The notes: generated by a model not told the origin, from the letters alone. DNA of 24,000 nt from Candidatus Saccharimonas sp. (GCA_035478375.1 DATIJQ010000035.1:21087-45086), one strand, 5' to 3'; shown: positions 4,351-18,872, numbered from the stretch's first letter. Numbers and translations are program-made.

Positions 4351-5640
4351 TTAGGCGTTGGCGATGCGGGCGAGTGCTTCGCGAAGTTCGATCGCAGTTG
4401 GCCGGTTGGCCGGTTCCTTGTGCAGGCATTGTGCGACAATATCGCGGATAAACGCCGGCACACGTTGGAGGTCTGGCGTGGCAGTGACGACGTTCATCAA
4501 AATGATTCCATCGCTGCTGCCGACAAATGGTGGCTCACCGGTGGCTCCAAAGCAAATGACGGCACCAAGCGAAAAAACATCGCCCGCCAGCGACAGCTGC
4601 TGCGGATGGTTTATGTGCTCTGGCGCCATGTATGCCGGCGTGCCGACAATCACGTTGGTGCCCGTAATACGTGTGCCATCAGTCTTGCGCGCAATGCCAA
4701 GGTCGATGAGTTTTGGCCCATCAGTCGGCGGCACAAGAATGTTGGACGGCTTAATATCGCGGTGCACAATATTGTGTTCGTGCAGCTGCTTGAGCGCCTC
4801 CACCAAACCGCGGAAAAACGTCAGCAACATGTCGTCTGGCAGGCCGTTGGGGTAACGCTTAGCTACAAAACTTTGGAGGGACAGCGCGTCCACAAAGTCT
4901 ATAGCCATCCACGGTCTTTCGCCGAATTGGCACGTGTCAACCTGCACAAGATACGGCGATGACGGGAGTGAGGCGTGAACTTGCATCTCGCGCCTAAAAC
5001 GGCTCCTTAGCTCCTCGGCAGCTTCGGCATCGTGCGTATTGAGCAGCATTTTGACAGCGAATAACTTACCGTTACGACCCCGAACTAAAAACACAATGCC
5101 CATGCCACCAACACCAAGTCGCGTTACGACTTTGTAGGGACCGATTTTGCGTGGGTCGCCTGGGAGCGTGCCGTGTCGCTCTGCCCTGGGCCAATTTGTT
5201 GTCGCCAAAGCTACCGTGGGCTGCTCGTCGGTTACGATGTGTCTCCGTTTGTAGAGACATCTAATAAGCCACGCTGTGCACGCCAGTAGCGCTGCGACAA
5301 TGACAAGCCTTAGCAAAATTGCCTCGGCGATGTCACGATCGGCCGTTGACGAATCTGGCGCTGGCTGCACCGATGCGGTCGTCGGTGGCGTGGATGTAGT
5401 GCTACTTGGTACGTCGCTCGTTGTTTCGGATGTCGACGATGCGGTTGTTGTGGTTGTCTCTGTCGTTGTGCTGGGTACTGTGTACGTTCCGCCCGGCCAG
5501 GTGTTATAGAAGATGATGCTTTGCCTCGCGGGCAGTGCAGGCTGCACCGGCGCCGACGCCGTGGGGCGTGTCTCCACTAGTAACAGCGTTGGTACTCCAA
5601 GCCCAATGACCAGAAACATTCCAGCCAACCAGCGCTTCAC
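4351..5640 (-). CDS. Membrane Ser/Thr protein kinase 2 (paralog of kinase 1) with a short Thr/Ser-rich exo-segment
   Basis: Kinase motifs: LGVGGMGIV, FAVKML, HRDIKPSNIL, DLGIA, GTPAYMAPE. The N-terminus MKRWLAGMFLVIGLG is an N-terminal hydrophobic signal/anchor segment. It is followed by low-complexity TTTETTTTTASSTSETTSDVPSSTTSTPPTTAS and a second TM helix (IVAALLACTAWLI). GTG start preceded by GGGAGCCGCG. Confidence 0.9.
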   Translation of the reverse strand: MKRWLAGMFLVIGLGVPTLLLVETRPTASAPVQPALPARQSIIFYNTWPGGTYTVPSTTTETTTTTASSTSETTSDVPSSTTSTPPTTASVQPAPDSSTADRDIAEAILLRLVIVAALLACTAWLIRCLYKRRHIVTDEQPTVALATTNWPRAERHGTLPGDPRKIGPYKVVTRLGVGGMGIVFLVRGRNGKLFAVKMLLNTHDAEAAEELRSRFRREMQVHASLPSSPYLVQVDTCQFGERPWMAIDFVDALSLQSFVAKRYPNGLPDDMLLTFFRGLVEALKQLHEHNIVHRDIKPSNILVPPTDGPKLIDLGIARKTDGTRITGTNVIVGTPAYMAPEHINHPQQLSLAGDVFSLGAVICFGATGEPPFVGSSDGIILMNVVTATPDLQRVPAFIRDIVAQCLHKEPANRPTAIELREALARIANA

Positions 5641-11344: not shown

Positions 11345-11709
11345 CTAGGAGATGTCTGTCATGCGCCTTAATGCTACAGCATCGACGGTGTTATTGTCAT
11401 AATTTTGTACATGGGTAACTATTGCAAGTAGCGTTATGGTCTCACCGCTAACTCCAAACCACATTCTCGGCCATTGTTAGGCTTAAGACCACTTTTCGGC
11501 ACCAAAACTTCTACTTTCCAAATTGTCCAAGTAGTGTCTGCTCGCACTCTATGTATTTTGCCTGGAGCTATCACTTCCTCAGGGGTTTGAGGATGAAATT
11601 GAACTGCGAGAAGCCGCTTGATTCGTTCTACGCCGTCACCGACCTGCAGATATTTTTTGCAGATCTTCTTTAGTTCAGGAACGAACTCATCATGCTGTTG
11701 CCACAACAT
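11345..11709 (-). pseudogene. RelE/ParE-fold toxin partner of the Panacea antitoxin, apparently disrupted by a frameshift near 11440-11480
   Basis: Frame A starts at ATG 11709, reads MLWQQHDEFVPELKKICKKY...IWKVEVLVPKSGLKPNNGRECGLELAVRP and stops at 11434. The -1 frame continues RMWFGVSGETITLLAIVTHVQNYDNN... to TAG at 11345. The joined reading (...KSGLKPNNGRRMWFGVSGETITLLAIVTH) matches the RelE pattern ...SSGYRLVYQVIDEKVVVFVISVGKR. The start overlaps the antitoxin stop by 20 nt. Confidence 0.45.
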
Positions 11710-12202
11710 CACTGAAGTCAGTCCCACGGTAAAAGGCTAGTTCGTATACAATCTCGTCATTTGGTTCCGTACCAACATATGGTGCCTCGGCATGGGTTAA
11801 GTCCTCGAGCTGTTTACCCGTCAACCTACCATATTTGTTAGCAACATGCTGCAATATTTGCAAATCCTCGGCATCGAAAACGCTCAAGTCGGCCTTTCTC
11901 TTTGCAGAATAGACACTGGTCGGTAGATAGCCGGGGGAATCCTCTTGCTCGTCAACAGCCAGAAGCCCTTCGCGCTGCATGGAATCGATAATTTCTGAGA
12001 AAGATTGGGGAACGGGCCCCATCTTCCAGGCCTTGTACGTATCCCCTGTAATACTCTTTTCAGACTCTTTGTACTCGTAACGGTCAAAGTCTACATAATA
12101 TAAAAGTTTAGCAAGCTTTTTTTTGCCACGCAAAGAACCCCCTAGTGACTCACACAGGTAGAGAATTGTGTTTTCGTACTTATCCTTTGCTATCTTGCTC
12201 AT
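11690..12202 (-). CDS. Panacea-domain (DUF4065, SocA/PanA-like) type II antitoxin
   Basis: KKLAKLLYYVDFDRYEYKESEKSITGDTYKAWKMGPVPQSF matches the DUF4065 signature KLxKLLYYxD...ITG..Y.AW..GPVP. The C-terminal ...LTHAEAPYVGTEPNDEIVYELAFYR is also typical of the family. Confidence 0.8.
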   Translation of the reverse strand: MSKIAKDKYENTILYLCESLGGSLRGKKKLAKLLYYVDFDRYEYKESEKSITGDTYKAWKMGPVPQSFSEIIDSMQREGLLAVDEQEDSPGYLPTSVYSAKRKADLSVFDAEDLQILQHVANKYGRLTGKQLEDLTHAEAPYVGTEPNDEIVYELAFYRGTDFSDVVATA

Positions 12203-13048: not shown

Positions 13049-13080
13049 TAGTACTATTATGGCCGGTGTGAGTAAGAATG

Positions 13081-13114
13081 AAAAGCCCCTCCACCCCGTT
13101 GCCGGGATGGAGGG
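13081..13114 (-). terminator. Strong rho-independent terminator ending the ycaO-precursor transcript
   Basis: The minus strand reads CCCTCCATCCCG-GCAA-CGGGGTGGAGGG (12 bp including one G-U pair), followed by GCTTTTCATTCTT. Confidence 0.75.
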
Positions 13115-13180
13115 TTGTGTCATGCGACACACCTCTACAAGAGAGGCTTGAGGAACACTCGCTGAGCGAGCACCGACCTC

Positions 13181-13294
13181 CTACAGGAGGATGTCGGTGC
13201 AGCCGCCGCAGCTGTTGGAGCCGCCGGCCGGCGCGCCCGTCGTCTCGATGACGTCCGTGCGTTCCGTGACCTCGATGATCAGACTCTGATCCAT
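13181..13294 (-). CDS. RiPP precursor peptide (37 aa): MDQSLIIEVTERTDVIETTGAPAGGSNSCGGCTDILL
   Basis: Hand-translated smORF that falls below the ORF-track cutoff. The ATG at 13294 is preceded by GAGAGGA with a 5-nt spacer and begins 14 nt after the ycaO stop. An acidic leader-like N-terminal half is followed by a Gly/Cys/Ser/Thr-rich C-terminal half. The terminator follows 67 nt downstream. Confidence 0.65.
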   Translation of the reverse strand: MDQSLIIEVTERTDVIETTGAPAGGSNSCGGCTDILL

Positions 13295-13308
13295 GAGGGT
13301 CCTCTCGT

Positions 13309-14727
13309 TCAGGCGAAGGGTTGCGTTTTGTACCCCGCGGCTGTTTTGCGAAGCGACCGGAATTGGCCGCTCGCGATACTTGTTGGAGTACGAAAAAGCC
13401 TCTCCATACCAAGCGCTTCCATCATATAGCCAAACCCTATCGGGGTCAACCCTTCGATCAACGAGCGAACTACATACAGGCCAGTTGTGTCCCTGCCAGC
13501 ACGATTGAGCTCAGTTGCATACCATGAAGTGCCTAGCCGATTAAGTGCTGTTTGCATCCCGATGACGTCTGTGGGGCCGGCGGGTATACCAGTTGCTTCA
13601 ATTAGGTCTTCACCTATAAGCAACTCTACCTCCGAATGATTTTCCGGTTTGTCATACCAGAATTGATGGTCCATAACATCCCGGATGTTTTCCATAGCAT
13701 TCACACTTGGCGTCTCAATATTACAGAAGGTGACATTGAGTTCCACCTCCTGTAAAGCTTTGTCCATCGCCACAATAGGCAAAGAATGCGAGGCCATGCC
13801 AAGAATGAGCCTTGGGTACGATTCTGCTTCTCGCCTGAGGATTACTAACACAACTGGCGCTAGCTCAAGAGTGAGGTTCAAAAACGTGCATGTAAACCCA
13901 AAGCTTTCTAGGCGCAAGACGCGACTCTTGAACTCGTCAGGTGGTGCTATGCGCTCGCGTTGCACACCCCAGAACCAATGAACCATAAGAGCGTCGCGCT
14001 CTATGAGTTCAAAAGCAGAGCTAAGCAATGCTACCTCAAAAGACGGGTGACAGGCAACTCCACTCGACGTCGCTGAAGTTACACGTTTACTTCCGGTTCG
14101 ATCTGGGTAGCATACTATCTCTAGAGGCAATCTAAATGCCTCATTCGTCGCCACATTCTCAACTCTGGCCCACTTTCCACTCGGCTCGCGCCCATATGGG
14201 AAATCGGCTCGCGCCAACTGCCACTCGCTATAACGCACAAACCTATGTATGTCCAGCGCAGGGACTGAGTCCTCCAGATCAACGAGCAAATCTGTATTGA
14301 CATTCGCGTCGCAACTGAGTCGTTCGTAGACTTCGGCAGCAGCTTTGAGCAAGGCTAGGTACTTCGTGTCTGCCTGGCCGAAACCTTTTGTGCGAGGCTC
14401 CGCTTTTAGCATGTAGCCTTCGCGAGGCAGGGCGAATTCTGGCCTAGTTGAGCCTTTTCGCACGACATAGGTTTCGACATTACGCTCGCCGAAATATCGC
14501 TCAAGACGACGAAGCGCGCCAATCTCATCGCCATCCTCGCTGACAACTACTCCGTACTGAGCAAGTGTACGAATTGCTGGCGTCTCTTGGACCCATTCGT
14601 TCTGGAGTTGCTTAAGCAGCGATTCTGAATCACCCCGGAGCCGCAAGCTCTTGTCTGGCGTTTCAAGGACCAAAGCGTCGCCATCATATCTCCACGAACA
14701 AAAAGGTGCTAGACGATAATGCATCAT
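13309..14727 (-). CDS. YcaO-domain protein (ATP-dependent cyclodehydratase type) with a roughly 95-aa N-terminal extension
   Basis: TKGFGQADTKYLALLKAAAEVYERLS matches the GKG.t...A..SA..EaiER.s pattern. SSGVACHPSFEVALLSSAFELIERDALMVHWF contains the canonical E..ERD motif. AGGAG RBS before the ATGATG start. Confidence 0.9.
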   Translation of the reverse strand: MMHYRLAPFCSWRYDGDALVLETPDKSLRLRGDSESLLKQLQNEWVQETPAIRTLAQYGVVVSEDGDEIGALRRLERYFGERNVETYVVRKGSTRPEFALPREGYMLKAEPRTKGFGQADTKYLALLKAAAEVYERLSCDANVNTDLLVDLEDSVPALDIHRFVRYSEWQLARADFPYGREPSGKWARVENVATNEAFRLPLEIVCYPDRTGSKRVTSATSSGVACHPSFEVALLSSAFELIERDALMVHWFWGVQRERIAPPDEFKSRVLRLESFGFTCTFLNLTLELAPVVLVILRREAESYPRLILGMASHSLPIVAMDKALQEVELNVTFCNIETPSVNAMENIRDVMDHQFWYDKPENHSEVELLIGEDLIEATGIPAGPTDVIGMQTALNRLGTSWYATELNRAGRDTTGLYVVRSLIEGLTPIGFGYMMEALGMERLFRTPTSIASGQFRSLRKTAAGYKTQPFA

Positions 14728-14806
14728 CTCCCGCTCCTAACGAAACGATAAGCTGGCCATTAAGGACTCGGATAATATTAGCACGTATGGATTTGACTGA
14801 ACAAAT

Positions 14807-15439
14807 TTACTGCGGCGTAGTAAATTTATATAAAAGGACAGACTGCCCTCCTTCAGGAAAAGGAGGTGTATAATCTTGGAACCAATATGGCCGGAAGCCG
14901 CGTGTACCATAAAAATCCAGAGTCTCAGTATTACTCTCGCTGAGTTCCGTGGCAAGTGTAATAACCTGTACGCCATTATTATGAGCTCTTTGCATACTGC
15001 GATTAAGTGCTGTGCTAGCGTAACCTTTACCTCGTGTCCTTTCGCCCGGCCTTGTAACAAGTTCACTAATGTATAAACGACGATCCCCTATTTCTTGGCC
15101 ACTATCGCTGTGGACGATTTCGCGGAAAGTTTTGCCAGCACTTAAAGTACCTCCGAGAAGGATATTAACAATTTCCCCGGTTCTGGAGTCGACTATTGCT
15201 TCGCTGTAATTCCACATCTCATCTATTCCTTGTCCAAAACGCTTTTGTTCCTTTATCATTTCTGCTGTGTAATACGGACCCGCCCCCTCTATAAAACTAC
15301 AGAGCCATAGAAGTTCTTCAGCATGCCCCTCAACGAAAGCTTGATCTACATGAACGCACTCTAAACCATCTTGTAATCGATCGACACTGCCAGTCGGAAT
15401 TTCAGATTGTGTTAGCGGTCTTTGCTCACGTTCAGTCAT
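14807..15439 (-). CDS. GNAT family N-acetyltransferase (start moved to ATG 15439)
   Basis: The acetyl-CoA motif A is ELVTRPGERTRGKGYASTALNRSMQRAHNNG (R..G.G/A pattern), followed by ETLDFYGTRGFRP. GGAG lies 10 nt upstream of ATG 15439. Confidence 0.8.
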   Translation of the reverse strand: MTEREQRPLTQSEIPTGSVDRLQDGLECVHVDQAFVEGHAEELLWLCSFIEGAGPYYTAEMIKEQKRFGQGIDEMWNYSEAIVDSRTGEIVNILLGGTLSAGKTFREIVHSDSGQEIGDRRLYISELVTRPGERTRGKGYASTALNRSMQRAHNNGVQVITLATELSESNTETLDFYGTRGFRPYWFQDYTPPFPEGGQSVLLYKFTTPQ

Positions 15440-15497
15440 TCTAGGGGCTCCATTAATGGTATTATATATTAAGTCCAACTACAGAGAAGAGGACGTC
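15440..15497. promoter_or_regulatory. 58-bp AT-rich divergent promoter region between the GNAT-ycaO operon and the dehydrogenase gene
   Basis: ggtattatatattaag gives TATAAT on the minus strand (15461-15466) and TATATT on the plus strand (15464-15469). GAGGA precedes ATG 15498. The -35 elements are unclear. Confidence 0.4.
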
Positions 15498-16442
15498 ATG
15501 GATCGCGATTCGCGTCCAGTCATGGTTGCCTGCTTAGGCAAGGATAAACAAGGTTACTGCTTTAAAACTTCCAGCGAGCGCATAGGTATACAGGAGAGGC
15601 TTGCGAACATGCTTCTACCTGTACTACATGAATCTACCGGCCATAGGACCATAGACCAATTGGCTAACGAAGATTTAGACGAGGAGATTCTTCTGACGCT
15701 ATTTGGCCAGTTTGAAGCCCTCGGCCTATGCTACGAGGCCCATAATGTCGCACTTTACGGTCACCGAGCAGCTTGTTATCCGGATCCGCTACGTCTCTAC
15801 CCGGGAGACGAAGCGGTGGAACAGCTGATGCAACTACCCTCAGACCGAGATGGTACGTTCATAAACGTACAATGCTCTGAGGACCCAAAAGCAAATATGC
15901 TAATTCGCAGAACTCAGCGCGCATTCAATGAACGGCCCATAAGTCTCAATGAAATGTCGCAGATTGCTTTCGCCAGTTATGGTCTAACTGAGGCGTGGGG
16001 CAATATCGCTCGCAGAACTGTTCCAAGCGCTGGCGCGATGTACCCCCTGCAGCTCGACTATGTTGTGCGTCGTGGGGAAGGCATGTTGGCCGGCGTATAC
16101 CGCTGGGCTAAGCAGGCAAACGGCTTCATTAGATACCGTGAAGTCGATGACCATATGCTTGAGGCATGTTTTATTGGCCAGGAATGGATGACTAGTGCAG
16201 TCATCCAGGTTATCAGTTTCGACATCGCGAGGAGTGCTGCGAAATATTCTTCAAGAGCACATCGTTTTGCGTTGCTGGAGGCTGGCCATGCCGCCCAAAA
16301 CGCGATCCTCAAGGCTACATCACTAGGCTTGGCCGCATGGGAGTACGGTGGCTACAATGATGCGGCGATGATGAAACTTGTCGAACTCGACGACCCAACA
16401 TGTGGCGTCGCAACCGTACTGTTTTACGGCCACACCGGCTAA
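15498..16442 (+). CDS. SagB-type FMN-dependent dehydrogenase (nitroreductase fold) of azole-forming RiPP pathways
   Basis: Motifs read directly: RRTQRAFNERPISLNEMSQIAF, VPSAGAMYPLQLDYVV, and RFALLEAGHAAQNAILKATSLGLAAWEYGGYNDAAM. These match the SagB-type patterns RRS.R.F...pl, PSAGalYPlE and lEaGh..QN..L.A..lGLg....GgF.D. The start is set at ATG 15498 because the track extension overlaps the GNAT gene. Confidence 0.85.
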   Translation: MDRDSRPVMVACLGKDKQGYCFKTSSERIGIQERLANMLLPVLHESTGHRTIDQLANEDLDEEILLTLFGQFEALGLCYEAHNVALYGHRAACYPDPLRLYPGDEAVEQLMQLPSDRDGTFINVQCSEDPKANMLIRRTQRAFNERPISLNEMSQIAFASYGLTEAWGNIARRTVPSAGAMYPLQLDYVVRRGEGMLAGVYRWAKQANGFIRYREVDDHMLEACFIGQEWMTSAVIQVISFDIARSAAKYSSRAHRFALLEAGHAAQNAILKATSLGLAAWEYGGYNDAAMMKLVELDDPTCGVATVLFYGHTG

Positions 16443-16833: not shown

Positions 16834-17421
16834 TTAATGATGAAAGAATGAAGTTAGCGATCCGCCCCATTGTGACCAAATTGTCGCAACGCTCGCAGCA
16901 TTCGTTAGAGCGCCAGCCAAAGCGGTAAGCACCATTTTAACCACGCTTTTTTGTCGCTGCGATTGCGGTAAAGTCGCCTGTTCTGCTAGAAAAGCTAACT
17001 GTTCAATAACTTGCTGTTTTTCAGTCTCTTTAATTTCTCGAGTGGCTATAACTGTTTCTGTAAGTAGCCTTATCGCTTTAGCAACATCTTCATCGCCATT
17101 GTTCTGAATGTCGTCCATGGCAACGTCAATGCGCCCCACTTGTGCCGTATTGATCGCGCCGATTACACTACGATCAACATTAATGTGGTTGTATGTTACC
17201 GACGCGCTGTTGATTCCAGACTGTGGAATTTGAATGCGCGGCCCACGTGGGGGTAGTCCAAAAGTAGCATAGATCTGGTCGCTTAGATAATTTATCATGG
17301 CCGCATTTGTAGCCATGGCCGCTTGAGCATTTTGCGCAACCATGTTGTAATGCTCCACGCAAAGTAAACTGCCGTTCTGCATTTGATAAAAGGCGGCGCG
17401 ACTGCATTGGCTGCAATGCAT
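16834..17421 (-). CDS. Hypothetical protein (195 aa) translationally coupled to the Fic gene
   Basis: Its ATG shares one base with the Fic stop codon (TAATG at 17423-17419). It has an N-terminal Cys/His cluster (CSQCS...LCVEH), a central helical region and a hydrophobic C-terminus. I recognise no family. Confidence 0.7.
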   Translation of the reverse strand: MHCSQCSRAAFYQMQNGSLLCVEHYNMVAQNAQAAMATNAAMINYLSDQIYATFGLPPRGPRIQIPQSGINSASVTYNHINVDRSVIGAINTAQVGRIDVAMDDIQNNGDEDVAKAIRLLTETVIATREIKETEKQQVIEQLAFLAEQATLPQSQRQKSVVKMVLTALAGALTNAASVATIWSQWGGSLTSFFHH

Positions 17422-18563
17422 TAAACACCTCCCCCATTGGCGGTAAATAGCCGAATATAGTTTTGGTAGGCAAATTGCCGCCCGTACGTTGCTGCTTCAT
17501 CCGTAGGCTGAAGAATGCCTAGATTGACGAACTTCTTAATAAGCTGATTTGCAGCTGGGCGGGAGAGGCCGGTGATTTTTTCGGCAGCAGCCACGTCAAC
17601 AATTGGCTGGCTATACAAACCCTTGAGTAACTTCACCGCAGTGGGCGCCTGCTTGCCGCCAAGGGCATGGACGATAGTCATGTCTTGCTCGCGTATTGTA
17701 ATTATGTGCTTCGAGACATCAGTTGCTTCGCGAGCGACCTCGGCAACACCCTCCAAGAAAAACTCAACCCACTCATTAACTTCGCCTTTGTTATGGTAGG
17801 CGGAAAGTCGATCGAAATAGGTGTCTCGGTGCCGCTTAAAATATTCAGATAGATAAAGAATAGGGTACTCGAGCACCTTTTGGCGACACAAATACATAGT
17901 AATCAAAAGCCGCCCCGTGCGGCCGTTACCGTCCAAGAACGGGTGTATGGTTTCAAACTGGGCATGCATGAGCGCTGCATTGATAAGCGCTGGGTAGGAC
18001 TGTTTTTTGTTAAGAAAATTTTCGAAGTCACTGAGCACCCTGCCCAGTTCATGCACCGGTGGCGGAACGAAATCGGCATTGTCAGGCCGTGTGCCGCCGA
18101 TCCAGTTCTGTGTTTTGCGGATTTCACCTGGAGTCTTGCCCACACCTTCGGCGGTTTCCGCCATCAACTGCTCGTGCAGCTCGCGGATTACGCGCAGTAT
18201 TAGCGGCATTGACTTAAGTCGACTCAAGCCATAGTTAACAGCCTTTACGTAATGTAAGATGTTTTCTACGTCACGAGGTACACCTTCAGTAATATTGAGG
18301 TCAGCCTTCAATGAGTCATGCATAGTCGCTTTAGTACCTTCGATGTTGCTCGAAAGAGTAGCTTCTTTGCGGACGTACATATAAATAAAGAAATCAATGT
18401 CCGGAATAAGCTGAGCGATGCCGTCCAACTTACCGAGCGCCAGCGTGGCATCCGCAGCAAGAAGTTGGGTTTGTGACCTAAAAACAAGCGGCGTTGTGGG
18501 CGGAAAAGCATCGGGGATAAATGCCTTGAAGCCCGCAGGTTGCGTTACAAATTTACCAATCAC
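17421..18563 (-). CDS. Fic/DOC family protein (AMPylase type) with an N-terminal inhibitory motif and a C-terminal winged-helix domain
   Basis: The Fic motif HPFLDGNGRTGR fits HxFx(D/E)GNGRxxR. LSSNIEGT fits the auto-inhibitory motif (S/T)xxxE(G/N). The C-terminal ITGLSRPAANQLIKKFVNLGILQ looks like a wHTH. GTG start with AAGGA upstream. Confidence 0.9.
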   Translation of the reverse strand: MIGKFVTQPAGFKAFIPDAFPPTTPLVFRSQTQLLAADATLALGKLDGIAQLIPDIDFFIYMYVRKEATLSSNIEGTKATMHDSLKADLNITEGVPRDVENILHYVKAVNYGLSRLKSMPLILRVIRELHEQLMAETAEGVGKTPGEIRKTQNWIGGTRPDNADFVPPPVHELGRVLSDFENFLNKKQSYPALINAALMHAQFETIHPFLDGNGRTGRLLITMYLCRQKVLEYPILYLSEYFKRHRDTYFDRLSAYHNKGEVNEWVEFFLEGVAEVAREATDVSKHIITIREQDMTIVHALGGKQAPTAVKLLKGLYSQPIVDVAAAEKITGLSRPAANQLIKKFVNLGILQPTDEAATYGRQFAYQNYIRLFTANGGGV

Positions 18564-18564
18564 G

Positions 18565-18595
18565 TACTTAACATCCTTTTATACAATGTTAAGTA
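18565..18595. promoter_or_regulatory. Operator-like palindrome IR1 over the Fic -10 / RBS region
   Basis: TACTTAACAT, an 11-nt spacer, then ATGTTAAGTA: perfect 10-bp arms. Confidence 0.55.
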
Positions 18596-18620
18596 TAACC
18601 CGTCGAACTTAACATTGCAA
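18592..18620 (-). promoter_or_regulatory. Predicted Fic promoter
   Basis: The minus strand reads TTGCAA, a 17-nt spacer, then TATACT. The -35 lies in the spacer of IR2 and the -10 overlaps an arm of IR1. Confidence 0.45.
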
Positions 18621-18637
18621 CATTAAATGTTAAGTTC
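18605..18637. promoter_or_regulatory. Operator-like palindrome IR2 over the Fic -35 region
   Basis: GAACTTAACAT, an 11-nt spacer, then ATGTTAAGTTC: perfect 11-bp arms. It has the same core and spacer length as IR1, and the two centres are about 41 bp apart. Confidence 0.55.
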
Positions 18638-18696
18638 ATAGTGACACGTTGCCCTGCGGTTGTGTATATGTTGACGCAAGGAATTTCGGATTTTAC

Positions 18697-18718
18697 TGCC
18701 GTCAAGATTACCGTCAAA
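18697..18718 (+). repeat. Sub-terminal direct repeat copy B
   Basis: TGCCGTCAAGATTACCGTCAAA lies about 80 nt inside the tRNA-proximal end of the islet. Confidence 0.5.
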
Positions 18719-18744
18719 TCCCGTTTTTAGCATAATCAACACCT

Positions 18745-18780
18745 AACAAAACAAACTAGCAACCGGGGTGAGGTTGCTAG
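18745..18780 (-). terminator. Rho-independent terminator of tRNA-Glu
   Basis: The minus strand reads CTAGCAACC-tcacccc-GGTTGCTAG (9 bp), followed by TTTGTTTTGTT. Confidence 0.65.
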
Positions 18781-18797
18781 TTTGGCTAATCTCAATC

Positions 18798-18872
18798 TGG
18801 TGACCCTATCGGGACTCGAACCCGAGTTGCCGCCGTGAGAGGGCGATGTCCTAACCGCTAGACGATAGGGCC
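18798..18872 (-). tRNA. tRNA-Glu: tRNA-Glu (anticodon CUC), CCA-encoded, 75 nt
   Basis: Hand-folded cloverleaf: acceptor GGCCCTA/TAGGGTC, D arm GTCT-AGCGGTTA-GGAC, anticodon arm TCGCC-CTCTCAC-GGCGG, variable loop CAAC, T arm TCGGG-TTCGAGT-CCCGA, then ACCA. Confidence 0.9.

Follow-up and report, generated by a model that had tools for sequence, protein, structure and literature searches.

Can a YcaO cyclodehydratase and a SagB-type dehydrogenase install azoles in a peptide when no E1-like partner protein is encoded beside them? The question is raised by a locus at positions 13,081 to 16,442 of a 24,000-nucleotide stretch of Candidatus Saccharimonas sp. DNA (GCA_035478375.1, DATIJQ010000035.1:21087-45086), the whole of which is referred to here as the window. 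An initial annotation had placed in this locus a YcaO protein, a divergently transcribed SagB-type dehydrogenase, a GNAT acetyltransferase upstream of ycaO, a small open reading frame (smORF) 14 nt after ycaO and a terminator, and had read them as a self-contained four-gene unit of a candidate new azol(in)e-type system for a peptide that is made by ribosomes and modified after translation (RiPP). All of these elements are present at or near the places assigned to them, and the family profiles PF02624, TIGR03605 and PF00583 match the three enzymes above their cutoffs. In our assessment the locus is quite likely to be a cluster of the linear azol(in)e-containing peptide (LAP) or thiazole/oxazole-modified microcin (TOMM) type, belonging to a Saccharibacteria bacterium of the candidate phyla radiation (CPR), with a core of three genes and no E1-like partner. 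The features on which this reading depends are the following.

13309-14727, minus strand: YcaO cyclodehydratase, 472 aa (PF02624 103.5 bits, cutoff 25.7)
14473-14727, minus strand: N-terminal domain of YcaO, aa 1-85, modelled as a winged-helix fold (beta-beta-beta-beta-alpha-alpha-alpha); proposed RiPP recognition element (RRE)
15498-16442, plus strand: SagB-type FMN dehydrogenase, 314 aa (TIGR03605 90.6 bits, cutoff 78.4; PF00881 64.6 bits)
13181-13294, minus strand: precursor peptide, 37 aa, MDQSLIIEVTERTDVIETTGAPAGGSNSCGGCTDILL, with ribosome-binding site GAGAGGA and a start 14 nt past the ycaO stop
13087-13114, minus strand: intrinsic terminator, a 12-bp stem with 9 GC pairs and then the U-rich tail GCUUUUCAUU, closing the GNAT-ycaO-precursor unit

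The SagB-YcaO-precursor core

Eleven related loci (L001-L008 and L020-L022) were retrieved, the window being the twelfth member of the family. A SagB-type gene adjoins ycaO in all 12, and a smORF of 36-87 aa follows ycaO at a distance of about 10-30 nt in 10 of the 11 other loci (L001-L008, L020 and L022; the count includes the second unit of L022, while the second unit of L020 is cut by the contig end). The conserved core consists of three genes, encoding SagB, YcaO and the precursor. L021 is the exception, as its sole smORF candidate lies upstream of ycaO and is doubtful; in the ten other loci that reach the position, the smORF stands directly after the orthologous ycaO.

The window YcaO and NCBI HSW81309.1, which belongs to a metagenome-assembled genome (MAG) of Candidatus Saccharimonas sp., are 100% identical, and the NCBI naming supports a CPR host. 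Full-length homologues are few, only 12 (35-100% identity) being found among 5.8 billion clustered proteins, and a second Saccharibacteria MAG (GCA_039928295.1) encodes a homologue of 35% identity. When 1.84 billion representatives were searched with a profile, matches over the whole length of the protein came from about a dozen 50%-identity clusters; below these, scores fell from 386 to 261 bits and the matches covered the YcaO catalytic domain only. A scan of GTDB species representatives with the family profile returned no close relative, the best match reaching 29% identity in the YcaO domain alone. Invariant within the family are the ATP/Mg motifs, with ExxER (EVYER; E132/E135/R136) and ExxERD (ELIERD; E240/E243/R244/D245), and S221-G223 in the SxGxA segment.

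The SagB-type protein combines a nitroreductase domain (aa ~137-301) with an N-terminal extension of ~130 aa that holds a winged-helix-like segment. Its profile matches McbC (E = 5.8e-13), and the Lys-Tyr pair K249-Y250 is invariant in 8 homologues; a catalytic role of this pair in McbC has been cited (PMC8442711). Alignment with homologues indicates that the start is most likely M15 of the open reading frame (ORF), at 15498 rather than 15456. Public gene calls are shortened to 181 aa (NCBI) and 173 aa (JGI) versus 314 aa (window 15456-16442; L002 4237-4758), so that the N-terminal extension is lost and the database architectures for the family are misleading.

In the 37-aa peptide, the boundary between leader and core would fall between MDQSLIIEVTERTDVIETTGAPAGG, which contains the motif LIIEVTERTD, and the putative core SNSCGGCTDILL. 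LIIEVTERTD is the window version of a leader motif common to the family smORFs, [FL]x[LI][EQ]V[TI]Px[ST]D, which is followed by a variable linker and a Gly/Ser-rich core with 1-6 Cys residues, usually Gly-adjacent. The smORF is unannotated at NCBI, and the precursor families of Pfam and NCBIfam gave no match to the peptide, as might be expected if it were spurious or no substrate and if YcaO and SagB acted on another protein in the manner of E. coli YcaO and the archaeal McrA-modifying YcaOs. We regard this as very improbable, since position, ribosome-binding site, leader motif and core composition are kept even where the enzymes are only 35% identical, and since in the tandem loci L020 and L022 a separate smORF stands behind every complete unit. 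When the window is compared with L003, moreover, peptide residues 19-36 (TGAPAGGSNSCGGCTDIL) are identical and the 3 nucleotide differences are all synonymous third-position changes, whereas the enzymes of the same pair of loci have diverged by 30-40% (60-71% identity). This pattern of substitution indicates that the precursor core is under purifying selection.

The precursor would be translated from a GNAT-ycaO-smORF transcript ending at the strong terminator. The 116-nt terminator region has a minimum free energy of -54.7 kcal/mol (z = -4.66 versus shuffles), and the pairing of the stem is maintained in L003 through compensatory changes. Between the smORF stop and the terminator (13115-13180, minus strand), three more small hairpins are predicted in the RNA, and this segment evolves much faster than the smORF (61% versus ~88% identity to L003). 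The best sigma-70-like match in the region, TTGACC-17-TATGAT (13421-13449, minus strand; 10/12), falls inside ycaO, at the 3' end of the gene and ~125 nt upstream from the smORF. Its TTGAC-N17-TAnnAT form is kept in five loci despite differing residues (Y/H/F, M/K/T); however, the site overlaps the conserved protein motif GLTPIGFGY, so that an internal precursor promoter is indistinguishable from coding constraint.

The in-silico checks set by the initial annotation, the profile matches and the conservation of the smORF, all came out in support of its reading, that of a cluster in which YcaO and SagB act in azol(in)e-type chemistry on a precursor encoded beside them and without an E1-like partner. 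The chemistry is likely to be the formation of thiazole, possibly with oxazole, on SNSCGGCTDILL. Several points weigh against this. The azol(in)e product is one that we infer in its entirety. TIGR03604, the TOMM SagD-family model, scores 136.4 bits and does not reach its cutoff of 219.25. By sequence, the nearest solved structure is that of the TfuA-independent, thioamide-forming MJ1094 (E = 5e-16), followed by TruD (1.5e-13), LynD and MusD. The C-terminus carries an invariant GYxxQPFA (PQPFA in some members, PHPFP in P0027), and this QPFA end, which resembles the PxPxP signature of azoline-forming YcaOs (PMC12338566, PMC8442711), appears from its sequence to be a different motif.

The same features, with the other roles that SagB-like enzymes have in trifolitoxin-type pathways, would suit a YcaO that carries out thioamidation or forms an amidine or macroamidine, leaving an unrelated oxidation to the nitroreductase-fold protein and yielding no azole. 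Such chemistry nevertheless seems unlikely. TIGR03604 is still the top-scoring YcaO subfamily model, and the McrA-thioamidation model reaches 34 bits. An AlphaFold2 (AF2) model of YcaO, with a predicted local distance difference test score (pLDDT) of 85, found azoline-forming LynD as its best Foldseek match (4v1t, E = 2e-18), then MJ1094, TruD, MusD, E. coli YcaO and McbD, the E-values for LynD, TruD, MusD and McbD running from 2e-18 to 2e-11. TfuA has no match in the window or the related loci and no sulfur-delivery gene is present, while the strict pairing with a Lys-Tyr-bearing SagB and the Gly-flanked Cys conserved in every precursor fit azole formation. On the azole reading, YcaO with ATP would cyclodehydrate the core Cys, and possibly Ser/Thr, to azolines, which the divergently encoded FMN dehydrogenase would then oxidise to azoles.

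Leader recognition and the partner question

On the basis of structural models, we propose that the N-terminal domain of YcaO is an RRE standing in for an E1-like partner. Only 116 aa precede the YcaO domain. The N-terminal domain has a pLDDT >90 in both the full-length AF2 model and a domain-only model, and shows the winged-helix arrangement expected of an RRE (a three-stranded sheet and three helices), with strands E11-15, E18-22 and E27-31 and helices H32-43, H50-57 and H67-81. Foldseek searches with the isolated domain gave top probabilities of 0.84-0.89 for RRE-bearing RiPP proteins, namely ThcOx, the TruD N-terminus, the PbtF RRE and McbB, and lower probabilities for LynD (0.66), MccB (up to 0.60) and TbiB1 (0.25). 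The domain is confined to about 12-13 50%-identity clusters. A comparable element may be present on the dehydrogenase, whose ~130-aa extension is conserved in 15 homologues and in some members gives weak matches to winged helix-turn-helix families, including the HTH_57 family of ThcOx (E = 0.02); when the N-terminal domains of YcaO and SagB were compared profile to profile, the outcome (probability 33%, E = 4.5e-4) was suggestive but unconvincing. Leader recognition would in this case be built into the enzymes, with the conserved leader strand as the docking element: LIIEVTERTD would dock on the RRE-like domain of YcaO, the similar domain of SagB may join, and, with the docking function carried by the enzymes themselves, no E1-like/Ocin-ThiF partner would be involved.

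No ThiF/E1 protein, TfuA, protease or transporter came to light when the 24-kb window was searched with Pfam and NCBIfam, in agreement with the initial annotation, although relatives do carry protease-like genes. Eight window ORFs are without any Pfam or NCBIfam family match, and no hidden partner, protease or exporter was found among them; nor do the genes called in the 11 related loci include an E1-like/ThiF partner.

These results have to be weighed against a canonical LAP pathway in which the genes for the E1-like/Ocin-ThiF partner, protease and exporter lie elsewhere in the genome or have diverged beyond the reach of hidden Markov models, the N-terminal domains being vestigial. A number of points favour this explanation or weigh against our own. 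The best Foldseek E-value for the isolated YcaO domain, 0.08, is not significant, and sequence searches of Pfam and the PDB with the N-terminal domains of both enzymes gave no PqqD match, Pfam returning nothing for that of YcaO. It has been suggested that the RREs borne by LAP, cyanobactin and thiopeptide dehydrogenases may be vestigial (PMC7470986), and the E1-like partner of the streptamidine pathway, AmiB, escaped conventional sequence analysis (PMC8442711). The window itself has neither a protease nor an exporter, it contains the eight unassigned ORFs, and, as the view taken here is one of 24 kb, a partner may sit elsewhere in the genome. On balance we consider a concealed partner improbable. 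A conserved extra gene beside the SagB/YcaO pair is found in 0 of the 11 related loci, and the unassigned window ORFs are not syntenic with the cluster in L003. In L004 and L005 only SagB, YcaO and the smORF stand between housekeeping genes (those for leucyl-tRNA synthetase, LeuRS, and NusB), indicating that no cryptic partner is encoded in cis. The family-wide retention of the YcaO N-terminal domain (22-87% identity), together with its high pLDDT, argues against decay.

In the partner-less pathway that we favour, the leader would be removed by an unlinked protease, a step for which relatives would use an adjacent DUF2268 or trypsin-like protease. A DUF2268 metalloprotease-like gene is present in the distant relatives L006-L008 and L021, and also in a sister family (P0031, locus L023) that has the same SagB-YcaO-precursor-DUF2268 layout and a classic Cys-rich core; SagB-YcaO-DUF2268 is likewise found in L009, from a Saccharimonadales species-representative MAG. 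A trypsin-like gene and an HTH_58 protein are found in L020 and L022. These two loci (L020 4001-8936, L022 784-7043) contain two tandem SagB-YcaO units with the trypsin-like protease gene ahead. Behind each unit of L022 come a Pro/Cys-rich precursor and an HTH_58 protein, the two precursors (70 and 87 aa) being quite unlike each other; the arrangement is an expanded version of the same system. In L006 (5000-8400) the SagB-YcaO-precursor-DUF2268 module lies between the S10 and L3 genes of the S10-L3 ribosomal operon, with an AAA ATPase gene between S10 and the module, and such a ribosomal-protein gene region is an unusual site for a secondary-metabolite cluster.

Accessory genes and genomic surroundings

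Beyond the core, the following features were recognized in or near the locus.

14807-15439, minus strand: GNAT acetyltransferase, 210 aa (PF00583 27.6 bits, cutoff 20.7)
15440-15497, no strand: divergent intergenic region between GNAT and sagB, 58 bp, from corrected start codons
12473-13048, minus strand: TehB-like class I S-adenosylmethionine (SAM) methyltransferase, 191 aa (MKTNTS...), PF03848 101 bits; the ORF extends to 13132
13056-13084, minus strand: weak promoter-like site TTTTCA-17-CATAAT (consensus scan 9/12), between the terminator and the methyltransferase start
18798-18872: tRNA-Glu(CUC), near the locus

The four-gene unit of the initial annotation has to be reduced to SagB, YcaO and the precursor, as GNAT is limited to the three closest loci, in the company of a methyltransferase that had been overlooked. 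Among the 5.8 billion proteins, GNAT homologues number only three, those of the window, L001 and L003, so that the gene is private to this cluster. Its start is most likely at 15439, which gives the same length as the NCBI call; with the starts of both SagB and GNAT corrected, the two genes do not overlap but lie 58 bp apart, and a consensus promoter scan of this region found none. The methyltransferase scores 97-113 bits with the TehB equivalog models, all under their cutoffs, and a match to a methyltransferase model for daptide RiPPs (38.9 bits, cutoff 175) was dismissed as generic class I similarity. Counterparts stand at the corresponding place in L001 (83% identity) and L003 (71%); L004-L008 and L020-L023 lack the gene.

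GNAT and the methyltransferase are confined to the window, L001/L002 and L003, and travel with the core as one block, the order of the five genes being the same in L003 although the two-component and DUF3048 genes on their flanks have been rearranged. It counts against membership in the pathway, however, that the methyltransferase stands behind the terminator with a promoter-like site of its own and so may be unrelated to the cluster. Both activities have precedents in tailoring, GNAT in the N-acetylation of goadsporin and a methyltransferase in plantazolicin. GNAT could serve N-acetylation of the product or self-immunity, and the role of the methyltransferase is open between tailoring, immunity and an unrelated function; within the proposed pathway, the pair would either decorate the peptide by N-acetylation and methylation or protect the producer. 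An adjacent GNAT, TfxH, confers self-immunity to trifolitoxin by acetylating the processed toxin (bioRxiv 10.64898/2025.12.02.691738) and offers, by analogy, a possible model for the window enzyme.

The accessory, tRNA-proximal and toxin-rich setting noted by the initial annotation was confirmed by neighbouring genes for tRNA-Glu, Fic and SocA/Panacea. In the interval from sagB to the next syntenic gene are found, at 16834-18872, a 195-aa ORF without family match, a Fic/DOC adenylyltransferase gene whose stop meets the start of that ORF at 17421, and the tRNA gene; L001 is without this segment, which therefore looks like an insertion beside the cluster. On the other side (11434-12202, minus strand), a SocA/Panacea-domain antitoxin gene (170 aa) overlaps a downstream 97-aa ORF of unknown family, the two probably forming a toxin-antitoxin pair. 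The corresponding side in L001 carries HIT and Zeta-toxin genes, and the sagB side in L003 carries PhdYeFM/ParE, so that the cluster is always found among toxin modules, though different ones each time. The upstream half of the window contains two Ser/Thr protein kinase genes (248-1873 and 4351-5640, both minus strand), one of them encoding a protein whose long N-terminal region is Pro-rich; two large ORFs in the same half, of 571 and 627 aa, match nothing in Pfam or NCBIfam.

Relation to known pathways and meaning for Saccharibacteria

LAP clusters composed of a YcaO, a nitroreductase and a peptidase with an adjacent precursor have been described from CPR genomes: a Microgenomates MAG carried one, and another 110 came from 93 CPR genomes; the lineages were Microgenomates, Parcubacteria, Peregrinibacteria and Katanobacteria, and no Saccharibacteria LAP was listed (Sharrar et al., 2020; PMC7298704). 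The present family resembles these clusters in having YcaO beside SagB/nitroreductase, a short Cys/Ser-rich precursor by ycaO, a CPR host and, in L006-L008, L021 and the sister-family locus L023, the peptidase-like DUF2268; the product is not known in either case. The likeness described here is one of layout and host, and the window sub-clade differs in having no peptidase and in its private GNAT and TehB-like methyltransferase. The partner-less architecture, the N-terminal docking-type domains and the shared leader motif are outside that earlier analysis (PMC7298704). The claim of a new RiPP system must accordingly be narrowed to that of a new architectural variant of a kind already known from genome mining. 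What is new is the family itself, restricted to Saccharibacteria, the family of precursors that goes with it and their leader motif, the direct fusion of an RRE-like domain to YcaO without an E1-like domain, and the private GNAT/methyltransferase pair.

Canonical TOMM/LAP systems (microcin B17 McbBCD, streptolysin S SagBCD, plantazolicin, goadsporin, phazolicin and klebsazolicin) share with the window a YcaO with a Lys-Tyr SagB and a leader-and-core precursor with a Gly/Ser/Cys core. Unlike them, the window has no E1-like C protein and no Ocin-ThiF-like F protein, whether as a fusion or on its own, its YcaO falls under the SagD-family cutoff and ends in QPFA, and it has no exporter or immunity gene. 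Among the cyanobactin enzymes LynD, TruD and PatD, the best structural match to the window YcaO was to LynD, and the window dehydrogenase has an N-terminal winged-helix-type extension like that of ThcOx. In LynD and TruD, however, an E1-like domain of ~200 aa separates the RRE from YcaO, whereas the RRE-like domain of the window protein abuts YcaO (472 versus ~775 aa); there is also no macrocyclase or protease, and the precursors are unrelated.

Stand-alone YcaO proteins are thought to act without an E1-like partner in RiPPs of the bottromycin/trifolitoxin type (PMC4603692). Bottromycin YcaOs differ from that of the window in having no fused RRE and in acting on a follower-peptide substrate. 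The tiarins are defined by a conserved Gln chromophore motif and by the dehydrogenases TfxB and TfxC, which lie as a pair within ~2.7 kb; the window has neither feature, and a tiarin/trifolitoxin relationship was ruled out by the single SagB-type gene per unit. L010, from Rhizobium leguminosarum, was also rejected as a trifolitoxin cluster, as what it encodes is a YcaO together with an ABC/C39 exporter and a 280-aa protein.

No new chemical class is represented by the locus, and comparable clusters have been reported from other CPR phyla since 2020; the finding is useful to RiPP enzymologists and to CPR biology without being paradigm-changing. If YcaO and SagB do work without an E1-like/ThiF partner, they would constitute a compact leader-guided, azole-installing pair (472 + 314 aa) that is attractive for peptide engineering, and would provide a clean test case for YcaO substrate recognition after partner loss. 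A bolder form of this reading, which we advance tentatively and with somewhat short of even confidence, is that the family is a partner-independent two-enzyme azole synthetase with PqqD-type domains fused onto both YcaO and SagB and no E1-like scaffold, perhaps the smallest natural azole-installing machinery, with which genome-reduced Saccharibacteria episymbionts would make a short thiazole peptide, the cluster-private GNAT providing tailoring or self-immunity and the product possibly acting on the host bacterium or on competitors. With this finding the Saccharibacteria join the CPR lineages that devote part of a ~1 Mb genome to a modified peptide. The way of life of these organisms, which are obligate epibionts of other bacteria, points to a possible role of the peptide in interaction with the host or with competitors.

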